A program made the translations under genes and the position numbers. 37,370 nt of DNA from Alphaproteobacteria bacterium. GTDB taxonomy: Bacteria; Pseudomonadota; Alphaproteobacteria; JAQWUY01. Under the pieces are notes generated by a model that did not search any database, had not been told where the DNA came from, and saw nothing but the letters and a program-made list of their open reading frames with translations. The stretch covers positions 1-37,370 of the forward strand of contig JBMZFW010000003.1 in assembly GCA_049615605.1 (NCBI GenBank). The letters run 5' to 3'. Below are positions 1,705-34,778 of this stretch, in pieces (position 1 is the first letter of the stretch; each line of letters starts with the position of its first letter).

Positions 1705-1798
1705 TTTTTAATGAGGGAATTAACAAGATTTGCGAGCGCAGTGTAGTAAGGCGAAGCCTACATAAGCGAGCAAATTGAAGTTAATTTCCCATTAAAAA
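1705..1798 (+). repeat. Complete 94-bp palindromic element (MITE/RPE-like)
   Basis: TTTTTAATG[A]GGGAATTAAC-AA-GATTTGC-GA-GC-gca-GTGTAG..CTACAT-aa-GC-GA-GCAAATT-GAA-GTTAATTTCC-CATTAAAAA folds as one long hairpin. Confidence 0.85.
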
Positions 1799-16610: not shown

Positions 16611-17834
16611 ATGGCTTTTACAAAAACAATCACCGCCCTTGATGTGGGAACATATAAAATCACTTGTATAACGGGTGAAGTTGGTTCAAACGGTACTGTA
16701 AAAATTAATAAAGTTGCAACCGTTGCTTCACAAGGTATGTCAGGTGGTATGATTAATGACATAGCAAAAGCAAAAAAATCAATTACATCGTGTATTGATG
16801 CCATTGAAAAGAAACAAGGTTTCCGTGTAAAAGATTTACACCTAACAATATCTGGGTTACAACCGAATTGCCATTCAGTAAAAGAAACTGTTAAAGTTGG
16901 TGGAAAACGCGTATCAAATAACGATGTAAACAGATTACTTAAATTATGTAAGTCAAAAGTCCACGATACGGACACCCCATTATTACACGCAACACCACTT
17001 TCATATTTTGTTGATGGACACCCAACGGACAACCCTGTTGGTTTAATTGGCAAAGAATTATCAATTAAAATCACATTGACAACTTGTGATGCATATTCAA
17101 TTAAGAACATTAAAAGCTTGCTTGAACATTGTGATATTAATGTAAAAGAAATTGCCTTTGATGGTTATATGGCGGCAATCGGTTGCCTTGATAAAGAAGA
17201 AAAAGATTTATTCACCGCTGTTATTAATATCGGCAGTGAAACAACATCTGTTTCAATAATGTATAAAGGTAAATTTGTTGCTTGTTCCAGTTTCAATATT
17301 TCTGGTGATAATATTACCAATGATATTTTATCAACAACTGCCACTTCAAAGATGGAAGCAGAACAAATTAAAATTAAACATGCCCACGCCGTATTAAGCA
17401 ATTCAATTGCCATTCAAAATCCAATTGAATTTCATCGTGCGGGTGAAAAAAATACTGTACCTAGTACAATTAACACTTCTACAATTACGGAAATTGTCCA
17501 ACGCAGGCTGGAAGAAATATTTGATAAATGTAAGCAAGCACCATACTTTGCAAATGCAGACAGAATTATCTTAACTGGCGGTTCAGCAAAGATTGAAAAT
17601 ATTGCTGAACTTTGTCGTTTGTATTTAAAGAAACCATCGCGAATTGGCACACCAAATAATGTGATTAATTTACCAAGTGATTATAACAATTCAATGTATA
17701 CAACAACGGTTGGTTTATTACGCCACAGTGGTCTAAACAGACCAACAGAAGAAAGCGAACTTGTTGACAAAGAAACCCTGCAAGAAGGCAGTCTTATCAC
17801 AAGATTGATTAATTGGGTTAAGACAGAGCTTTAA
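16611..17834 (+). CDS. ftsA: Cell division protein FtsA (divergent)
   Basis: ALDVGTYKI, AEQIK, ILTGGSA, RIGTP, C-terminal amphipathic RLINWVKTEL; position before ftsZ. Confidence 0.9.
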   Translation: MAFTKTITALDVGTYKITCITGEVGSNGTVKINKVATVASQGMSGGMINDIAKAKKSITSCIDAIEKKQGFRVKDLHLTISGLQPNCHSVKETVKVGGKRVSNNDVNRLLKLCKSKVHDTDTPLLHATPLSYFVDGHPTDNPVGLIGKELSIKITLTTCDAYSIKNIKSLLEHCDINVKEIAFDGYMAAIGCLDKEEKDLFTAVINIGSETTSVSIMYKGKFVACSSFNISGDNITNDILSTTATSKMEAEQIKIKHAHAVLSNSIAIQNPIEFHRAGEKNTVPSTINTSTITEIVQRRLEEIFDKCKQAPYFANADRIILTGGSAKIENIAELCRLYLKKPSRIGTPNNVINLPSDYNNSMYTTTVGLLRHSGLNRPTEESELVDKETLQEGSLITRLINWVKTEL

Positions 17835-17844
17835 TAGGCAACAT

Positions 17845-17890
17845 TCTTATCCCCCCTGTATTCATAATCCCCCCTATAAACATAATCCAT
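17845..17890. repeat. Imperfect 18-bp tandem repeat (~2.5 units) with C6 tracts
   Basis: TCTTATCCCCCCTGTATT / CATAATCCCCCCTATAAA / CATAATCCAT. Confidence 0.6.
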
Positions 17891-18076
17891 AAAAATGGAT
17901 TAATATTTTTTATACTTAAAGGGGGGTTTAAAAGCCCCCTACTCTTTTCAAAAAAAGTTTTTTTTTCAGACAAAAAATCGCTAAAAACTGCGAAAAATCG
18001 TGATTTTAAGCATCATATATATTGTGCTTCGGGGGGCTTTTTAATACTATATATATGAATTTTTTAACATTTTTGC

Positions 18077-18105
18077 TTGTTTTTATGTTTTTAAAAGTAT
18101 ATCAT
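18077..18105 (+). promoter_or_regulatory. Candidate ftsZ promoter
   Basis: TTGTTT-N17-TATCAT, 45 nt upstream of the ftsZ ATG. Confidence 0.4.
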
Positions 18106-18150
18106 TAATATAAATATATATTTTAACATTAATTTTTAAGGGCTTTTAAC

Positions 18151-19734
18151 ATGTTAGATATCACTACTTCAGATGTAACGAAGAAAAATACTCCAAGAAT
18201 CGTTGTGATTGGTGCGGGCGGTGCCGGTGGCAATGCAATCAATAATATGATTACAGAACACTTACAAGGCTGTGAATTCGTTGTTTGTAATACGGACGCA
18301 CAAGCATTGGAACATTCCCTAGCGGATAAAAAATTCCAAATCGGTGAAGAAGTTACCGGTGGTTTAGGTGCAGGTGCGAACCCAGAAGTTGGTCGTATGT
18401 CTGCCGAAGAAAACATTGAAGAAATCTCTAATTACATTGACGGTGCCAACATGGTATTTATTGCCAATGGTATGGGTGGTGGTACTGGTACTGGTTCTGC
18501 CCCTGTTATTGCCCGTGCAGCACGTGAAAAAGGCATATTAACAATTGGCGTTGTAACAAAGCCTTTTGGTTTTGAAGGTACTGTTCGTATGCGTCAAGCA
18601 AACGAAGGTATTGAAGAATTACAAAAGTATGTTGATACATTAATTGTTATTCCAAACGAAAACTTACACGCAGAAGTTTCTGAGACAACTTCACTTGAAG
18701 ACGCATTCAAAAAAATTGACCGTGTATTATTACTTGCGGTTCAAGGCGTGACTGATTTAATGGTTAAACCTGGTAAAATCAACCTTGACTTTAATGACAT
18801 CAGAACTGTTATGCTTGAAAAAGGCAAAGCAATGATGGGTGTTGGTGAAGCATCAAGGGCAGAACAAGGTAGCGAAGCATCTATTAATGCGGCGGAACTT
18901 GCAATTCACAACCGTTTACTTGATAACGATAATATGCGTGGTGCTAAATCGGTTATTATTAACTTCACTGCATCAAAAGACTTATCATTAAACGAAGTTT
19001 CTGTTGCGGTTAACCGTGTTCGTGAAGAAATTGATCCAGATGCTGGTATCTTCTTTGGTCAAACAATTGATGAAAGCATGGGCGATGTAATTCGTATATC
19101 TATCGTTGCAACTGGTATTGATGTGAATGCTGATACTATTACAGCACCAAATTTTGACACAGAAACGAAAAACCACGATGCAATTTGGCAAGATGCTGGT
19201 TCTGAAACAACTGAAACTGATGACTTCCTAGCATCTGTATACAATGTTAACGAAGATACACCATCTGAACCTGAAATGGTTGAAGAAACTGTATCATCGG
19301 AAGAATTCGTATCTGAAGCTAATATTGAAACTTCTGCACCTGAAATCGCAGAAGAAGCAACTGTTGAATCAATGACGGAAGAAGTATCTGCTGAACCTTC
19401 TTTACCACAAAGTGAAGAAGAATACAGCTCAATCGACCCATTCATTGAAGCGGATATGGCAAATGCAACACGCGAAGGTGGTGCAGTTGAAACAGCCGAA
19501 GAAGAAACAGCTGAAGAAAAAGTTGGTTTCTTTAAGAAAATCTTTGGCAGTATTAAAGCAAATGACGAAACTGTAAGAACAGAACCTATCTTGGAAGATG
19601 CGGAAGAAGAAACTACATCTACTTCATCTGCACCTGCAACTGCGGTTACATCTGATGGCAGATTAGCCCTTGAACAAACTCAAGAAGAAGAAGATATGGA
19701 AATCCCATCGTTCTTAAGAAAACAGTTAAACTAA
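18151..19734 (+). CDS. ftsZ: Cell division GTPase FtsZ with a long acidic linker
   Basis: [36 protein letters not shown]; C-terminal core peptide EIPSFLRKQ. Confidence 0.98.
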
Positions 19735-19753
19735 TTTGTGATTGTGTTTTCAT

Positions 19754-19787
19754 AAAAAAACTACCGCCCCACTGGGGCGGTTTTTTT
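19754..19787. terminator. Rho-independent terminator after ftsZ, probably bidirectional
   Basis: ACCGCCCC-act-GGGGCGGT, with an A7 tract upstream and a T-tract downstream. Confidence 0.85.
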
Positions 19788-19799
19788 ATAAGGGTTTAA

Positions 19800-20067
19800 A
19801 TTTATGAGCGACTACGACAAGTAGTCATAAAGCGAACAAATACGAAGTGTAATATTTCGTATAACTTAATCTATTTTAATGAGTCTAGTACCAAGTATTT
19901 GTGAGCGACTACGACAAGTAGTCATAAAGCGAACAAATACGAAGTGTAATATTTCGTATAACTTAATCTATTTTAATGAGTCTAGTACCAAGTATTTGTG
20001 AGCGACTACGACAAGTAGTCATAAAGCGAACAAATACGAAGTGTAATAGACCATTAAAATAGATTAA
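19800..20067 (+). repeat. Tandem array (period 97 bp, ~2.7 units) of the palindromic element; last unit 19963-20067 is complete
   Basis: GAGCGACTACGACAAGTAGTCATAAAGCGAACAAATACGAAGTGTAATA starts at 19806, 19903 and 20000. The final copy has a 16-bp terminal inverted repeat TTAATCTATTTTAATG / CATTAAAATAGATTAA. Confidence 0.92.
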
Positions 20068-21228
20068 TTATTTAAGGTAGTCAGTGAAACGCTTAAATAA
20101 ATAGTGTGAGTCTTGTGGACCCGGTGAAGCTTCTGGGTGGTATTGTACTGAAAAGACTGGCTTGTCTTTGATACAAATTCCCGCCAGTGTTCCATCAAAT
20201 AAGCTGAAGTGTGTTGCTTCTACATTATCTGGTAATGTATCTTTGTTTACAACGAAACCGTGGTTTTGTGATGTAATTTCAACTTTACCAGTTGTTAAGT
20301 CTTTGATTGGGTGGTTTGCACCGCGGTGTCCCAAGTGCATTTTTTCTGTTTTCGCACCAAGGGCTAATGCCAACATTTGGTGACCAAGACAGATACCAAA
20401 GATTGGTTTGCCGCTTGCGATTAATTCTTGAATCACTGGAACTGAATATTCCCCCGTTGCCGCAGGGTCACCCGGACCATTTGATAAAAATACACCATCT
20501 GGGTTGTATGCAAGGATGTCTTGTGCTGATGTTGTTGCTGGAACAACTGTAATTTTACAACCTTGTGAAGCAAGGTTTCTTAAAATATTTCTTTTGATAC
20601 CATAATCAATGGCAACGATATGATGTTTTGCATCTTTTACTTCGCCGTGACCTTCGCCCAATTTCCAAAGGCTTTCATTCCATTCATATGGTTTTTCACA
20701 ACTTACATCTTTGGCTAAGTCAAGACCTTCAAGTCCAGACCAAGATTTTGCCATATCATATAATTTATCTAAATCAAAATTACCCGACTTGTCGTGGCAA
20801 ATCACACCATTTGGTGCGCCGTTATCACGAATTATTGCCGTTAATGCACGGGTATCAACACCAGTGATTGCCGGTATATTATGTTTCTTTAGCCATTCAT
20901 CAAAGCCAGCCATATTACGCCAGTTTGAAGGTTGTGTAATATCAGTACTTAATACCGCACCACAAGAAACTGGTTTTTCGCTTTCAATGTCTTCGTCATT
21001 TGTACCAACATTACCAATATGTGGGAATGTGAATGTAATTGATTGCCCCGCATACGATGGGTCAGTCATTATTTCTTGGTATCCAGTGATTGAAGTATTA
21101 AAACAGATTTCTGAAACTGTTGTTGTTTCCGCACCAGCACCGTAACCAAAGATTACTTCACCATTATCTAAAACCAGCACCGCTGTTGCATCATTTGGGA
21201 TATTCTTTTTATCAATATTTAATGTCAT
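20068..21228 (-). CDS. carA: Carbamoyl-phosphate synthase small subunit
   Basis: FNTSITGYQE, DPSYAGQ, LSNGPGDP, GICLGHQ, QNHGF, QYHPEASPGP. Confidence 0.97.
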   Translation of the reverse strand: MTLNIDKKNIPNDATAVLVLDNGEVIFGYGAGAETTTVSEICFNTSITGYQEIMTDPSYAGQSITFTFPHIGNVGTNDEDIESEKPVSCGAVLSTDITQPSNWRNMAGFDEWLKKHNIPAITGVDTRALTAIIRDNGAPNGVICHDKSGNFDLDKLYDMAKSWSGLEGLDLAKDVSCEKPYEWNESLWKLGEGHGEVKDAKHHIVAIDYGIKRNILRNLASQGCKITVVPATTSAQDILAYNPDGVFLSNGPGDPAATGEYSVPVIQELIASGKPIFGICLGHQMLALALGAKTEKMHLGHRGANHPIKDLTTGKVEITSQNHGFVVNKDTLPDNVEATHFSLFDGTLAGICIKDKPVFSVQYHPEASPGPQDSHYLFKRFTDYLK

Positions 21229-21264
21229 TTTATCTATATTCCTACTACTTTGATAAATTACCCC

Positions 21265-21293
21265 ATACTATTACTATTTTATCCTTTTGTCAA
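21265..21293 (-). promoter_or_regulatory. Sigma70 promoter of carA
   Basis: Minus strand TTGACA (21293-21288)-N17-TAGTAT (21270-21265). Confidence 0.65.
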
Positions 21294-21345
21294 ACCACAA
21301 TTGGGTGTATAATTAGCATAATTTACAACAATTTAAGGATAAAAA

Positions 21346-21798
21346 ATGCGTGATATTATCAACAATGCAATGAAAACCGCTATGAAAGAAAAACAAAGCG
21401 AAAAATTACTAGTTATTCGTGCCATTAATGCCAAAATTAAAGATGCGGATATTAACGCCCGTTCAAAAGGCAACAATGATGGTGTGAATGATTCGGAAGT
21501 ACTTGGCTTATTGCAAAATATGGTCAAACAACGCAAAGAATCTATTAAAATGTATACGGAAGGCAACCGCCCAGAACTAGCAGAAAAAGAACAAGCGGAA
21601 ATTGAAATTATTAATGAATTTTTACCTGAAATGATGTCAGACGAAGAAACGGAAAAGGCAGTAAGCGAAGCAATCGGTGAAACTGGTGCGTCTTCAATGG
21701 CGGATATGGGTAAAGTAATGGGTATTTTAAAATCAAAATATTCTGGTTCATTGGATATGGGTAAAGCATCGGGGATTATTAAATCAAAATTATCATAA
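21346..21798 (+). CDS. yqeY: GatB/YqeY domain protein
   Basis: AMK, KQRKESI, GNRPELAEKEQAEI..FLP, DMGKVMG; divergent from carA as is common in Alphaproteobacteria. Confidence 0.92.
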   Translation: MRDIINNAMKTAMKEKQSEKLLVIRAINAKIKDADINARSKGNNDGVNDSEVLGLLQNMVKQRKESIKMYTEGNRPELAEKEQAEIEIINEFLPEMMSDEETEKAVSEAIGETGASSMADMGKVMGILKSKYSGSLDMGKASGIIKSKLS

Positions 21799-21821
21799 GG
21801 TGTTTTGACAAAGGTAATTAA

Positions 21822-22649
21822 ATGCTAAACAGAATACTGTTATCAACAATAGTAATATTATCATTAACTTTTTTTGCTGAAGTCTATTTTAAAATAACTG
21901 TAGCAAACCAAACTTGGACTAAAACCGCGGGATTTTTAACGGAAGACAAACGATTTTACCCCCGTTATGCAACAAAAAATGCCAGTGATACATCAAAGGT
22001 AATAATTCCAAACGCATCTGATAAAACAATTATTATATATAATCACGGAACAACGGATTCTTGGTTAAAAGAAAACTGTGATGCCAATTTCAACCAAATG
22101 CCCGCAAGGTATAAAAAATTACAAAATAAGGACACGGTGTTTTATTACCTTTGTTCAACTGTAACCGATTATGATAAACCAGGGACATATACAGAGCGTC
22201 GCACAGTTGAGATTTCAGCCCTGCTAGACAAATTAATTAACGCAGGTGTAAAGCCAAAAAACATTTTCATAATTGCCCATTCATCTGGTTCGTGGGCAAC
22301 ACTATTATTAAATAAACAGCAAAAGAAAAAATTTAACGCTTTCTTTTTAACTGCACCTGCAATGGCGGGGAAAGTTGCAGAAATGAATACAAGACCTTTG
22401 TATAAAAAGGCATATTATCAACACTTAGATAAATTTAACCATACCCCACAAAAAGGGATAATTGTATTTTACACAAAAGACCGTTGGGTAAGGCAATCTG
22501 ATTGGAATAATTTTAAGCAAAACCATTCATCAAATGTAGATTTTTATACATACAGATGTTTAAGGGGACATTTTTCAAGTTGTAATTCTTATAACCATAT
22601 AAAAGTAATAAAACAATTTATGAAAAAATCTAGACAAGGCAAAAGATAA
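21822..22649 (+). CDS. Exported or membrane-anchored alpha/beta hydrolase
   Basis: N-terminal hydrophobic segment; IIYNHG oxyanion region; AHSSG nucleophile elbow; candidate catalytic Asp (KDRW) and His (GHF). Confidence 0.65.
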   Translation: MLNRILLSTIVILSLTFFAEVYFKITVANQTWTKTAGFLTEDKRFYPRYATKNASDTSKVIIPNASDKTIIIYNHGTTDSWLKENCDANFNQMPARYKKLQNKDTVFYYLCSTVTDYDKPGTYTERRTVEISALLDKLINAGVKPKNIFIIAHSSGSWATLLLNKQQKKKFNAFFLTAPAMAGKVAEMNTRPLYKKAYYQHLDKFNHTPQKGIIVFYTKDRWVRQSDWNNFKQNHSSNVDFYTYRCLRGHFSSCNSYNHIKVIKQFMKKSRQGKR

Positions 22650-22656
22650 AAATTCC

Positions 22657-22685
22657 TTGACTAAATAAGGGGTTTTCTATATATA
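22657..22685 (+). promoter_or_regulatory. Candidate rplU-rpmA promoter
   Basis: TTGACT-N17-TATATA. Confidence 0.5.
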
Positions 22686-22813
22686 TAAGCCATTATATGA
22701 TTCTTTGGAACATATATATAGAGTATATAAGATGCTATTTGAGGTTCATAAGTATTTGTTTTATTTAAATAAATCACCGTAAAATGCGAATTTGAGTAGA
22801 AGGGTGTACAATT

Positions 22814-31509: not shown

Positions 31510-31601
31510 TATAATAGTTTGCAAGTATCAAGGGTATTGTTAGCGACGACGAACAAGTAGTCATAAAACAAACAAATGCGAAGTGCAGTTAACCATTAAA
31601 A
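31510..31601 (+). repeat. Decayed copy of the palindromic element at the glmS stop
   Basis: GTATTGTTAGCGACGACGAACAAGTAGTCATAAAACAAACAAATGCGAAGTGCAGTTAACCATTAAAA aligns end to end with 19992-20059. Confidence 0.85.
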
Positions 31602-31606
31602 CCTAT

Positions 31607-33439
31607 TTATTCCACTGTTACTGATTTGGCTAGGTTTCTTGGCTGGTCTACATCAGTCCCCTTTGCCAATGCACAATAATATGCAAGTAATTGTGCAGGA
31701 ACGGAATATAATATTGGGGCAACTAGTTGATTAATCGTTGGAATACAGATTGCATCAAAATCAGTTGTTGTTAATTTACGCATTTTGGCGATGCCTTCTT
31801 CATCAGACATAAAGACAACTTTACCACCGCGAGCGATTGCTTCTTGAATATTACCTGCAGTTTTTTCAAACAGGTCATCGTTTGGACAGGTTGCGATAAT
31901 TGGCACGCTGTCATCAATAAGGGCAATTGGTCCGTGTTTCATTTCGCCAGCTGGGTAGCCTTCGGCGTGAATGTAAGAGATTTCTTTTAATTTCAATGCA
32001 CCTTCCATTGCGATTGGGTAATTTACCCCACGACCAAGGAATAATACATCTTTGGCTTCGGCAACACGGTTTGAGATTTCTTGAATTTCTGTGCCTTTGG
32101 TTAAGACTTCAGCAATTGTTGCGGGTAATTCCAATAATGCCGACACATAATCTTTTTCATCTTCGGCAGATAATTTACCAATACTTTTGCCGATTGATAA
32201 TGCCATACACATAAGCACCGTTAACTGTGTTGTAAATGCTTTGGTTGATGCAACACCAATTTCTGGACCAGCCAAGGTTTGTAATACCGCATCGGATTCC
32301 CTTGCAATTGTGCTTTCAAGAACATTTACCACAGAAATAATTTTCTGCCCCTGTGATTTACAATATTTTAAGGCTTCCAAAGTATCCATAGTTTCGCCAG
32401 ATTGTGAAACAAAAATAGCAACGCCATTTTTTGGCATTGGTGGTTCGCGGTAACGCATTTCGCTTGCCACATCAATTTCCACAGGAATTCGTGCAATCTT
32501 TTCAATCCAATACTTGGCAATTAAACCCGCATAATATGCCGTACCACAAGCGGAAATTGTTACCTTTTCAACCTTTGAAAAATCAATACCCAAGTCTGGG
32601 ATTGTAATTGATTGTTCCGCAGGGTGAATATAACTAGCCAGTGTATCGCCAATTACCGTTGGTTGTTCGTGGATTTCTTTTTCCATATAATGGCGAAAGT
32701 TCCCTTTGCCCACGCTGTCGCCTGTTAATCCAGTTTGTACCACTGGGCGGTCAACAACATTGTTATCAATATCATAAATTTCAACATTGTCATTTGTGGC
32801 AACAACATAATCACCATCATTTAAATAACATATATCTTGTGTATAAGGGGCAAGTGCCAACGCATCAGAACCAAAATATTTTTCCCCATCGCCCAAACCA
32901 ATGGCAAGTGGTGAACCAACACGCGCGCCAATCATAATATTTTCATGCCCTTTAAATATCATACAAAGTGCAAATGCACCTTTTAATTTTGGTAACATTT
33001 CCTGTACCGCTTGTAATGGTGTTTTACCCGCATTTAAAAACGAAGTTAACAAGTGAACAATAATTTCCGTATCTGTTTCAGATTCCATATCAGATGGGGT
33101 AAGACCAAGACCATCGGCAAGTTCGCGGTAATTTTCAATAATACCATTGTGTACAACCGCCACCTGTTCATTCATATGTGGGTGTGCGTTATTTTCACTT
33201 GGAACACCGTGTGTTGCCCAACGGGTGTGTCCAATCCCCATAGTTCCAGAAATTGGTTGTTCAGATATTACCTTTTCCAAGTTTACAATTTTACCAGATG
33301 CACGACGGCGTTGTAATTCCCCACCGCTTAATGTGGCAATACCTGTTGAATCATAACCGCGGTATTCTAGGCGACGCAATCCATCAACCAATAATTCCGA
33401 TACTTCCGATTTACCAATAATTCCAATGATACCGCACAT
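31607..33439 (-). CDS. glmS: Glutamine--fructose-6-phosphate aminotransferase
   Basis: MCGII N-terminal catalytic Cys fixes the start at 33439; LEYRGYDS, HTRWATHG, SQSGET, VASTKAF, PRNLAKSVTVE. Confidence 0.98.
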   Translation of the reverse strand: MCGIIGIIGKSEVSELLVDGLRRLEYRGYDSTGIATLSGGELQRRRASGKIVNLEKVISEQPISGTMGIGHTRWATHGVPSENNAHPHMNEQVAVVHNGIIENYRELADGLGLTPSDMESETDTEIIVHLLTSFLNAGKTPLQAVQEMLPKLKGAFALCMIFKGHENIMIGARVGSPLAIGLGDGEKYFGSDALALAPYTQDICYLNDGDYVVATNDNVEIYDIDNNVVDRPVVQTGLTGDSVGKGNFRHYMEKEIHEQPTVIGDTLASYIHPAEQSITIPDLGIDFSKVEKVTISACGTAYYAGLIAKYWIEKIARIPVEIDVASEMRYREPPMPKNGVAIFVSQSGETMDTLEALKYCKSQGQKIISVVNVLESTIARESDAVLQTLAGPEIGVASTKAFTTQLTVLMCMALSIGKSIGKLSAEDEKDYVSALLELPATIAEVLTKGTEIQEISNRVAEAKDVLFLGRGVNYPIAMEGALKLKEISYIHAEGYPAGEMKHGPIALIDDSVPIIATCPNDDLFEKTAGNIQEAIARGGKVVFMSDEEGIAKMRKLTTTDFDAICIPTINQLVAPILYSVPAQLLAYYCALAKGTDVDQPRNLAKSVTVE

Positions 33440-33440
33440 A

Positions 33441-34778
33441 TTATTTCTTCTTTTGTTTTGCTTTGCGGAATAAGGCAGCCGCACCAGCAACATTTTCTTG
33501 GTTTGCACGGGCAATTACCAATGCATCTTTTTCCACATCTTTTGTCACAACTGAACCAGCACCAATTAATGCACCGTCTTGTACCGATACAGGCGAAACA
33601 AGGCAAGTATTTGAACCAACAAAGACTTCATCCCCCATATCAGTTGTTGTTTTTTCAAAGCCGTTGTAATTACAAGTAATAACACCCGCACCAATATTAC
33701 AATCTTTGCCCATATTAGTATCGCCAATATAAGTTAAGTGATTAACTTTTGAACCTTTGCCAATTTTAGATTCTTTTACTTCAACAAAATTACCGATTTT
33801 GTTATTGCCTTCAAGTACCGCACCTGGGCGAAGCCTTGCATAAGGACCAACCACACTGTTTTCACCCACGATACATTTTTCAAGGTGTGAAAAAGCACGG
33901 ATTGTACAGTTATCATTAATTTCAACGCCTGTACCAAACACAACATTTTGTTCAATGGTTACATCGCTTCCAATTTTTGTATCGTATGAAAAGTAAACTG
34001 TTTCAGGGGCTAATAAATGTGTGCCATTTTCAAGTGCGTTCATTCGCATATTGTATTGGAATAACGCTTCGGCTGTTACCAAGTCCATTTTTGAATCACA
34101 ACCCATTACTTCGTTTTCATCGGCAATGGTATAGGCAACATTACCGCCATCAGCTTTTGCCAATTTGATAATATCAGTTAAATAATATTCGCCTTTTGCA
34201 TTGTCATTATCAACCGCATCAATCAAATCAAATAACTTATCAGCACTTACCGCCATAATACCCGAATAACATAAATTTACTTGGCGTTGGTCGTCATCAC
34301 ATTCTTTGTCTTCAACGATTGCTTCAACGAATTCATCATCACCAACCATAATACGACCATATCCCGTTGGGTCTTGGGGTAAGAAACCAGCAATGGCAAT
34401 TGTTGCACCTGCTTCGGCGCGTGTATCAATTAAATCCGTAATTGTTTCTGCATTAATAAGTGGGGTATCACCATTTAAAATTACAATAGTTTCAACTTTT
34501 TCTTTTTTAAAGAAGTCAGCACACACACCAACGGCTGATGCGGTACCGTTTGCGTCTTTTTGTAAAACCGCATTTGTTTCACCAATAACGGATTTTACTT
34601 CTTCTTGGTTATGTGGACCAACAACAACACAGCCCGTCTTTGGCGACAAAGAACCAACCGCATTTAAAACATGATTTATCATAGGAAGTCCCGCAACACT
34701 GTGCATTACTTTTGAAAGTGAAGACTTCATCCTAGTGCCACGACCAGCACCCATAATAACAAATCCAATATTAGCCAT
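33441..34778 (-). CDS. glmU: Bifunctional GlcNAc-1-P uridyltransferase/acetyltransferase
   Basis: AGRGTRMKS, GYGRI, EYYLTD, hexapeptide repeats, GNFVEVK, HLTYIGD; adjacent to glmS. Confidence 0.95.
   Translation of the reverse strand: MANIGFVIMGAGRGTRMKSSLSKVMHSVAGLPMINHVLNAVGSLSPKTGCVVVGPHNQEEVKSVIGETNAVLQKDANGTASAVGVCADFFKKEKVETIVILNGDTPLINAETITDLIDTRAEAGATIAIAGFLPQDPTGYGRIMVGDDEFVEAIVEDKECDDDQRQVNLCYSGIMAVSADKLFDLIDAVDNDNAKGEYYLTDIIKLAKADGGNVAYTIADENEVMGCDSKMDLVTAEALFQYNMRMNALENGTHLLAPETVYFSYDTKIGSDVTIEQNVVFGTGVEINDNCTIRAFSHLEKCIVGENSVVGPYARLRPGAVLEGNNKIGNFVEVKESKIGKGSKVNHLTYIGDTNMGKDCNIGAGVITCNYNGFEKTTTDMGDEVFVGSNTCLVSPVSVQDGALIGAGSVVTKDVEKDALVIARANQENVAGAAALFRKAKQKKK

Follow-up and report, generated by a model that had tools for sequence, protein, structure and literature searches.

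A family of covarying hairpin repeats at gene 3' ends in small alphaproteobacterial genomes

Two palindromic elements of about 100 nt in an alphaproteobacterial contig share their unpaired bases and their order of helices, although the helices themselves differ in sequence, and this raises the question of what keeps such a fold intact and what it does at the places where it is found. The original prediction had answered that a protein recognizes the single-stranded fold of a mobile element or a structured noncoding RNA (ncRNA) family. The window (the whole 37,370-nt stretch of DNA that was analyzed) is contig C3 of the source assembly (G000; 80 contigs, 1.10 Mb, 35.7% GC, 84% complete).

Copies in the window and structure of the family

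Family copies were gathered by iterated nhmmer searches, which gave 65 matches in the source genome, and base pairs were predicted with RNAalifold on an alignment of 53 full copies from it (A1). A covariance model (R1) recovered 69 matches in the same genome at E <= 0.01. The 61 loci counted below are its matches at E < 1e-4, with five opposite-strand echoes taken out, and they bear out the prediction that the window elements belong to a multicopy family. A second alignment of 58 rows (A2) was fitted to R1 and is hence biased toward structure; the independent MAFFT/RNAalifold result agrees with it. We call the strand on which the family was modeled the model strand (the + strand in the window) and the 3' end on that strand the model-3' end. 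The copies and the neighboring features in the window are as follows; three of the copies (1624-1702, 19800-19854, and 19866-19951) go beyond those first predicted.

1624-1702, + strand: degenerate, 3'-truncated copy directly upstream of copy A, covering model positions 1-79 (nhmmer E 1.5e-10)
1705-1798, + strand: copy A, full hairpin with an extended apex (R1, 66.6 bits; fold z -7.35)
19763-19781, both strands: GC-rich hairpin outside the family, with 8 pairs (7 of them G-C) and T-runs on both strands, just after ftsZ and before the element array
19800-19854, + strand: another truncated tandem unit, shorter than that at 19866-19951, with 98% identity to the corresponding part of copy B
19866-19951, + strand: truncated tandem unit without the model-3' arm, 100% identical to 19963-20048 (97-nt period)
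19963-20067, + strand: copy B, full hairpin (R1, 107.4 bits), whose model-3' end abuts the carA TAA stop
20068-21228, - strand: carA (carbamoyl-phosphate synthase small chain), whose stop abuts copy B
31510-31601, + strand: copy C, decayed and no longer folding (z -0.09), whose model-3' end abuts the glmS TAA stop
31607-33514, - strand: glmS-like gene (GATase and SIS domains), whose stop codon abuts copy C

Folded as RNA, copy A reaches -35.4 kcal/mol (none of 200 shuffles was as good) and copy B reaches -42.8 kcal/mol (z -11.32). The folds reproduce the layout predicted for both, from the terminal stem and bulged A through an outer stem, an AA/GAA loop, an inner stem, GA/GA, and GC/GC to the apical hairpin, and the three G.T pairs claimed for copy A can be read directly in its sequence. 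The third predicted copy, copy C, holds as a family member by similarity (82% identity to copy B over 78 nt; nhmmer E 1.8e-6), but it does not hold by its fold or by R1, whose matches do not include it.

Copy A is an atypical member, sited in a divergent promoter region rather than at a gene end. Together with two others, it has the lowest R1 score among the full-length copies of its own genome, and with its truncated neighbor it lies between a cytochrome b561 gene (- strand) and mraZ (+ strand), which are divergent. The mraZ open reading frame (ORF) as listed (1803-2333) begins with a TTG codon at 1803, 5 nt past copy A. Because the MraZ domain match begins only at residue 101, the true start is probably further downstream, which would place copy A in the mraZ/cytochrome b561 promoter region. 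The degenerate copy beside it scores 46.6 bits with R1 (at 1612-1722) and is without the long hairpin (dG -12.2).

Copy B is the carA-proximal and only complete member of an array (19800-20059) of three tandem units with a period of 97 nt and 98 to 100% identity, which looks like the product of recent slippage or duplication and not of transposition. Comparable arrays of an intact copy with half copies occur elsewhere in the source genome (C8:2932-3178, C14:24576-24793, C37:7429-7601, and C69:3076-3244). Intact copies are gene proximal, and half copies or remnants, where present, lie on the gene-distal side of the intact copy. Internal repeats of another kind, 230 to 630 bp long, 78 to 93% identical, and unrelated to the hairpin family, occur within single contigs (C10:6085-9252 and C8:363-1207) and may be tandemly repeated gene segments.

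The element is about 105 nt long, has 19 to 37% GC, and consists of four helices. From the outside in, a variable basal stem leads to a conserved ATTTTAAT/ATTAAAAT stem with a bulged A, a further stem (stem 2), a 3-bp helix between conserved internal loops, a highly variable inner stem, and, at the tip, a hairpin whose TA core is conserved. In the model orientation, the 5' arm reads W-AAAT-NN-ATTTTAAT-(G/T)AG (the A being the bulge), followed by stem 2 ending in AG, then (A/T)ATC and AA; the center holds an inner stem of 9 to 13 bp, GCG-A(C/A/T)G, and an apical stem, its TA core invariant, capped by a loop of about 5 nt; and the return arm reads G(A/C)AG-AT-AAT, (C/A)A, and TAAAAT-NN-ATTT-W. 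The ends are palindromic (WAAAT-NN-ATTTTAAT...ATTAAAAT-NN-ATTTW). When pairs were counted outward from the modeled stem as an anchor, pairing was 0.89 to 1.0 for 4 bp and 0.64 at the fifth position and then fell to the background of 0.28, and this abrupt fall indicates that the element has sharp ends, about 105 nt apart. Tandem GA/GA, present in copies A and B and taken for a family motif, is confined to one subfamily; most copies continue the inner stem there. Two candidate readings, as CcrM (GANTC) sites and as a kink-turn formed by GA/GA, were rejected, the motif in each case not being conserved across copies.

The predicted combination of conserved unpaired motifs with covarying stems holds across the family. 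In A2, the 58 copies are paired at 93.9% of 1,723 stem cells, against 63.9 ± 0.8% after shuffling (none of 500 shuffles reaches the observed value) and 35.6 to 46.3% in controls with slid partners; doubly changed cells number 501, against 151.6 in the shuffles. Compensatory double changes are found in 29 of the 30 pairs predicted on A1 with RNAalifold, and A2 likewise gives 29 of 30 changed on both sides. Such covariation, together with the conserved unpaired motifs, indicates that some constraint maintains a single-strand fold. The stems are about 50% identical between copies and yet 94% paired. How similar two copies are in the outer stem, in stem 2, or in the inner stem shows no correlation from one of these helices to another (Mantel r, 0.00 to 0.06), and only the inner stem and the apex covary in similarity (Mantel r, 0.29; p 0.001); the lack of correlation between helices argues that the family is not a recent neutral burst. 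Most copies in the source genome are old and mosaic, with small subfamilies present.

The family had not been recognized in the original prediction, and a search of the whole window against Rfam 15 likewise matched no family at the gathering thresholds. Rfam searches at E <= 1, covering 18 of 48 small copy-bearing loci, gave five sub-threshold hairpin-like matches, the best with 27.7 bits against a gathering score of 80. In the full-text literature searched, we found no description of this hairpin family. No family described in Rfam or in that literature matches it.

Placement and orientation at gene ends in five genomes

Placement was scored on a crude gene map of ORFs of at least 110 aa, taken greedily by length (90% coding), to which tRNAs were added with aragorn. 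At 46 of the 61 loci in the source genome, the model-3' side of the element has the 3' end of a gene or tRNA no more than 15 nt away, whereas a gene 3' end lies that close to the model-5' side at only 3. The abutting neighbor is always convergent to the model strand. Its stop codon (mostly TAA, in some cases TAG) falls 0 to 12 nt before, or within, the ATTTTAAT motif, i.e., in the basal stem, and a TAG or TAA stop falls on the TAG or TAA, respectively, of the element. With the neighbor convergent and its stop inside the basal stem, its mRNA would carry the reverse complement of the model strand; likewise, a carA transcript would carry the reverse complement of copy B, which abuts the carA stop on the opposite strand. 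The claim that the + strand is the functional one thus conflicts with the context at these 46 loci.

Three copies stand directly after tRNA-Leu, tRNA-Asn, and tRNA-Tyr, and a fourth adjoins a tRNA-like 3' end that is truncated by the edge of its contig. Between codirectional genes, 21 of 26 elements are antisense (in the model orientation) to both genes and adjoin the stop of the upstream one. Copy A and about 15 other loci are without an abutting gene end. All 61 loci are intergenic, the sole ORF overlaps being of at most 30 nt and at ORF ends, and the likeness to Rickettsia palindromic elements (RPEs) suggested in the original prediction fails on this point. As to its broader choice between a mobile element and a structured ncRNA, the maintained single-strand fold stands, but the loci are not those of randomly placed ncRNA genes. 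As a separate observation, the orientation of the elements is uniform within most contigs of at least 15 kb (C9, ++++++; C3, ++++; C5, +++; C4, --; C8, --; and C13, --).

The proteins encoded by element-abutted genes end where their orthologs do. In six of six comparisons with a same-genus genome (G001), the C terminus lies 0 to 2 residues from the ortholog end, four being equal, one being 1 residue shorter, and one being 2 residues shorter. CarA ends in ...FTDYLK* in the source genome and in ...FTDYLKAQ* in the same-genus ortholog, which has no element after the gene. The orthologous gene ends in G001 are without the element, and one bears a classic GC hairpin with a T-run instead. Gene order between the two genomes, compared at 17500-22700 of the window and at a second locus, is heavily broken, with breaks that often coincide with element positions, and neighboring genes of the source genome map to different G001 contigs at 66 to 82% nucleotide identity.

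A BLAST search with copy B against 40 relatives found nothing outside the source genome; the distant copies needed the covariance model. R1 gave 3 matches in G001 (1.2 Mb, 100% complete), against the 61 loci of the source genome, and no match in two same-family genomes of 2.6 to 3.0 Mb; elsewhere, it gave one match in G058, five in G109 (1.1 Mb), and eight in G153 (1.4 Mb). Under strict filters, 4 of 151 genomes sampled from the class carry the family, a patchy distribution. A sequence-pattern scan of contigs listed at least 80 loci, of which one among those listed was confirmed by R1, and it is of little use for judging distribution. Among the 14 copies of the four other carriers (G001, G058, G109, and G153), 13 have an ORF, either long or edge limited, that reaches into the model-3' end, and no ORF of at least 100 aa runs into the model-5' end of any of the 14. 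Since the rule is kept in five genomes, the placement is a property of the family and not of one genome.

G109 holds four copies that are 96 to 99% identical and stand beside four unrelated ORFs, each with TAG at the same position in the element. Outside the conserved core, 2 to 5 nt differ between these near-identical copies yet stay complementary, G-C pairs included. At four loci of this genome (L205, L206, L217, and L219; about 1614-2050 in gene sense), a second set of repeats of about 60 to 250 nt and 74 to 98% identity follows the hairpin, so that the G109 gene 3' regions are repeat clusters.

Candidate roles of the hairpin and routes of its spread

The reading that we favor, tentatively and at somewhat short of an even chance, is that of a MITE/REP/SPRITE-like small interspersed repeat serving as a 3'-end hairpin, be it a terminator, a stabilizer, or a processing site. 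The elements would then probably be gene-end signals that copied themselves around the genome and would have been mobile in the past. The element would be transcribed, in the sense opposite to the model strand, as the first part of the 3' untranslated region; the hairpin would act at the transcript 3' end in a terminator-like manner and/or as a barrier to 3' exonucleases or a substrate of RNase III, an enzyme that the source genome encodes; and selection for this role would preserve the pairing of every helix as the sequences drift or recombine. The gene-sense strand has U-rich unpaired residues, and on it TTGATTCT, complementary to the conserved AGAATCAA, comes after the inner hairpin. On this strand, 26 of 59 copies have a T-run (T >= 4) no more than 16 nt past the hairpin, compared with 17% of the intergenic 16-mers taken as controls (odds ratio, 3.8; p 1.4e-6). 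Gene ends of the source genome show hardly any enrichment of canonical terminator-like sites (96 of 856, against 78 of 1,000 random segments).

Other observations count against a 3'-end role. The displaced T-run is present in under half of the copies, the model strand folds better than its complement, and the excess of G.T pairs runs opposite to what selection on a gene-sense RNA would predict. Termination after the inner hairpin would leave the outer stems out of the RNA, and their conservation would then need another cause. Only 3 of the 61 elements, on either strand, have the short GC-rich stem, loop of 3 to 8 nt, and T-rich tract of a canonical intrinsic terminator, and the intrinsic terminator consensus flagged none of copies A, B, and C. 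Beyond the element array downstream of carA there is a canonical terminator, so copy B is not needed there in that capacity. The GC-rich hairpin at 19763-19781 would, to judge by its sequence, be a bidirectional intrinsic-terminator-like site that serves ftsZ and, past the array, carA. As a side observation, the RNA-binding domain of Rho was found in G001, with its three elements, and not in the source genome, with its 61 loci (84% complete, with the rpoB domain likewise undetected). The missing Rho may be an assembly gap; if its absence is real, Rho would have been lost where hairpin gene ends were gained, a noteworthy pairing.

An unlikely but serious alternative to the 3'-end role is a selfish, strand-specific element that spreads as single-stranded DNA or by template switching and inserts at stops, through microhomology of TAA/TAG with its TAAATAG end, on one replication strand. 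Targeting and purifying selection would then account for where and how the element sits, with no service to the host. Such an element would suit the sharp difference in copy number within the genus, the patchy distribution in the class, the near-identical G109 copies beside unrelated ORFs, and the coincidence of TAG and TAA stops with the element's own. The complementary variable flanks in G109 suggest that the outermost stem was made from the target, e.g., by snap-back synthesis, but these flank pairs are mostly A/T and lie in A-rich and T-rich contexts. In the family, the flanks are complementary, not direct, for 4 to 5 bp; about half of the copies could have a TA...TA pair, and no consistent target-site duplication was seen at the element ends. 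Orientation also tracks replication-corrected GC3 skew, the model strand being the C-rich one at 34 of the 41 elements that could be used, compared with 60% of genes that lie on the G-rich strand (p ~0.004), but the assembly is fragmented and 84% complete and the skew is weak, which makes this result a lead only. Loci that break the gene rule follow the skew as well (9 of 11). Three landmarks consulted to calibrate skew polarity gave no anchor: the rpoB domain was undetected, the contig with the L2 operon shows almost no skew, and dnaA is on a contig of 11.6 kb.

A selfish element is disfavored, in turn, by the lack of an enzyme that could move it. The partner enzyme that the original prediction had placed elsewhere did not turn up in the 84%-complete source assembly, which lacks all five transposase domain families searched for as well as RVT_1. 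None of the five carrier genomes yielded Y1_Tnp, the TnpB zinc ribbon (Cas12f1-like_TNB), or DDE_3; DDE_Tnp_1 and rve were found among the five in G109 only and hence neither in the source genome nor in G001; and RVT_1 (reverse transcriptase) was found in neither of the latter two. No long multicopy repeats were found in the source genome. Neither an empty site nor a polymorphism was seen for the one copy followed in contigs of two other seawater runs, which bridge it without gaps and thus indicate that this copy is stable across samples. Logan contigs at one copy's locus gave no clean empty site, the contigs being short and their repeat-copy joints not interpretable, and at a locus syntenic between the source genome and G001, the intergenic DNA and the C-terminal part of the gene are too diverged for an empty-site alignment at the nucleotide level, with genes of the two genomes 70 to 82% identical. 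Neutral decay, moreover, would not hold 94% pairing at about 50% stem identity.

We consider it distinctly unlikely that the functional fold is that of the model strand, whether as a cis-antisense RNA, as a hairpin that blocks transcription into the gene 3' end, or as a single-stranded DNA recognized by a protein. As RNA, the fold of the model strand is the more stable one in 49 of 56 copies (mean, -41.5 versus -37.2 kcal/mol), and its unpaired residues are purine rich, but about 30 of the counted G.U pairs are one conserved position. The wobble argument of the original prediction stands within the source genome, where G.T exceeds A.C on the model strand by 53 to 17 in the model alignment (two ambiguous pairs removed) and by 28 to 8 in strand-neutral folds (21 copies versus 4). 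It does not extend to the 14 copies from other genomes, where the count is 4 to 4; related copies, moreover, are not independent, and mutation bias is possible (replication-corrected coding-strand GC3 skew, -0.055). A convergent gene could transcribe into the element in the model orientation at 24 of the 61 loci, but 21 codirectional loci are without an annotated transcript in that direction, no conserved promoter-like motif lies upstream (only A-richness), and no T-run follows the hairpin on that side. A promoter in the model orientation was considered as well and rejected, promoter-like matches in the window being at the level of shuffles (97 versus 89.3 ± 10.0).

A further account, which we regard as a long shot, would make the element a transposase-free, self-propagating gene-end cassette, copied onto stops by replication-coupled template switching and snap-back synthesis on one replication strand, with an outer stem derived from the target's last codons, a protein that is spared, and an antisense fold that a host factor reads. 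Integron attC sites, which form a cassette array beside the intI integrase and carry R''/R' core sites, are the remaining comparison. It is highly improbable that our elements are attC-like sites, i.e., folded single strands recombined by a tyrosine recombinase: they resemble attC in being imperfect palindromes, here about 105 nt long, that keep one orientation at the 3' ends of ORFs and often overlap the stop, with conserved terminal boxes, bulged bases, and a structure kept more than the sequence, and gene order differs greatly between the source genome and G001, but their neighbors are housekeeping genes and tRNAs spread over many contigs with no array beside an integrase, the source genome has only two Xer-sized tyrosine recombinase genes, as does the three-element G001, and the ATTTTAAT/ATTAAAAT boxes are unlike the attC core sites.

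Known repeat families and the meaning of gene-end hairpins

The closest concept is the SPRITE of pneumococci (Firmicutes). Its description (PMC3049150) presents a terminator-like, AT-rich repeat with an 18-bp duplex and AAAA/TTTT ends that lies near CDS 3' termini, is enriched between convergent genes, is reported there to be without a matching IS or clear target duplication, and is proposed to be a co-opted terminator. The likeness, which is one of description, consists in a small AT-rich repeat at CDS 3' ends with a long stem and a U-rich tract, and it is a functional analogy only. Unlike SPRITE as so described, our family has a 105-nt four-helix hairpin, asymmetric conserved loops, heavy covariation, a stop in the basal stem, and a 46-to-3 lock on orientation.

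Correia elements (Neisseria), ERIC/YPAL (enterobacteria and Yersinia), RUP, and BOX are bounded by conserved terminal inverted repeats, with TA or other target duplications, and have IS transposases related to them. In our family, by contrast, the arms vary and covary, no consistent duplication is seen, and none of the five transposase families was found in the source genome. According to PMC10969869, those families are likewise long-hairpin repeats (100 to 170 bp); RNase III cleaves Correia hairpins in mRNA, and an ERIC copy at the 3' end of a gene alters transcript levels. The same article notes RPEs for in-frame insertion inside protein genes. Our elements share with RPEs, so described, the character of a palindromic repeat family in small genomes and are set apart from them by description, with none of the 61 loci within an ORF and with unchanged protein C termini.

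Only the loose features of MITEs are present, namely, small size (<300 bp; here about 105 nt), many copies (61 loci), and palindromic terminal repeats, and no related autonomous IS or transposase was found in the carrier genomes searched, the source genome being 84% complete. REP/BIME elements are GC-rich sequences of 20 to 40 bp that carry a GTAG or CGTC tag and occur together with a Y1 (RAYT) gene. Our family resembles them as extragenic palindromes on the 3' side of genes in a mosaic arrangement and differs from the REP/RAYT system in its length of 105 nt, its AT-rich composition, and the absence of Y1_Tnp from all five carriers. Liang, Rudd, and Deutscher are said to have found in 2015 that Escherichia coli REPs no more than about 15 nt from a stop codon stall ribosomes. 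PMC3733652 describes REPs as mosaic extragenic palindromes in 3' untranslated regions with proposed roles in termination and mRNA stabilization.

Small interspersed palindromes are common, but few combine four helices that covary independently, conserved asymmetric loops, a stop in the basal stem, and a near-absolute rule of orientation; the recurrence in several small genomes, with no transposase found in the source genome, adds to this unusual combination. The covariance model can be used to annotate the family, and the elements explain many contig ends and rearrangement hot spots in such metagenome-assembled genomes. If the element is a gene-end cassette of the kind outlined above, it would represent a new route of spread for structured DNA and a new strand-specific punctuation of the genome in streamlined marine bacteria. 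If it is selfish, its precise targeting of stop codons, which spares the proteins, and the complementary flanks on the target side would point to an undescribed mechanism of insertion. If, as we favor, the elements are 3'-end signals, a streamlined genome with few canonical terminators would mark its gene ends in this way, with a repeat that has been domesticated for that job.
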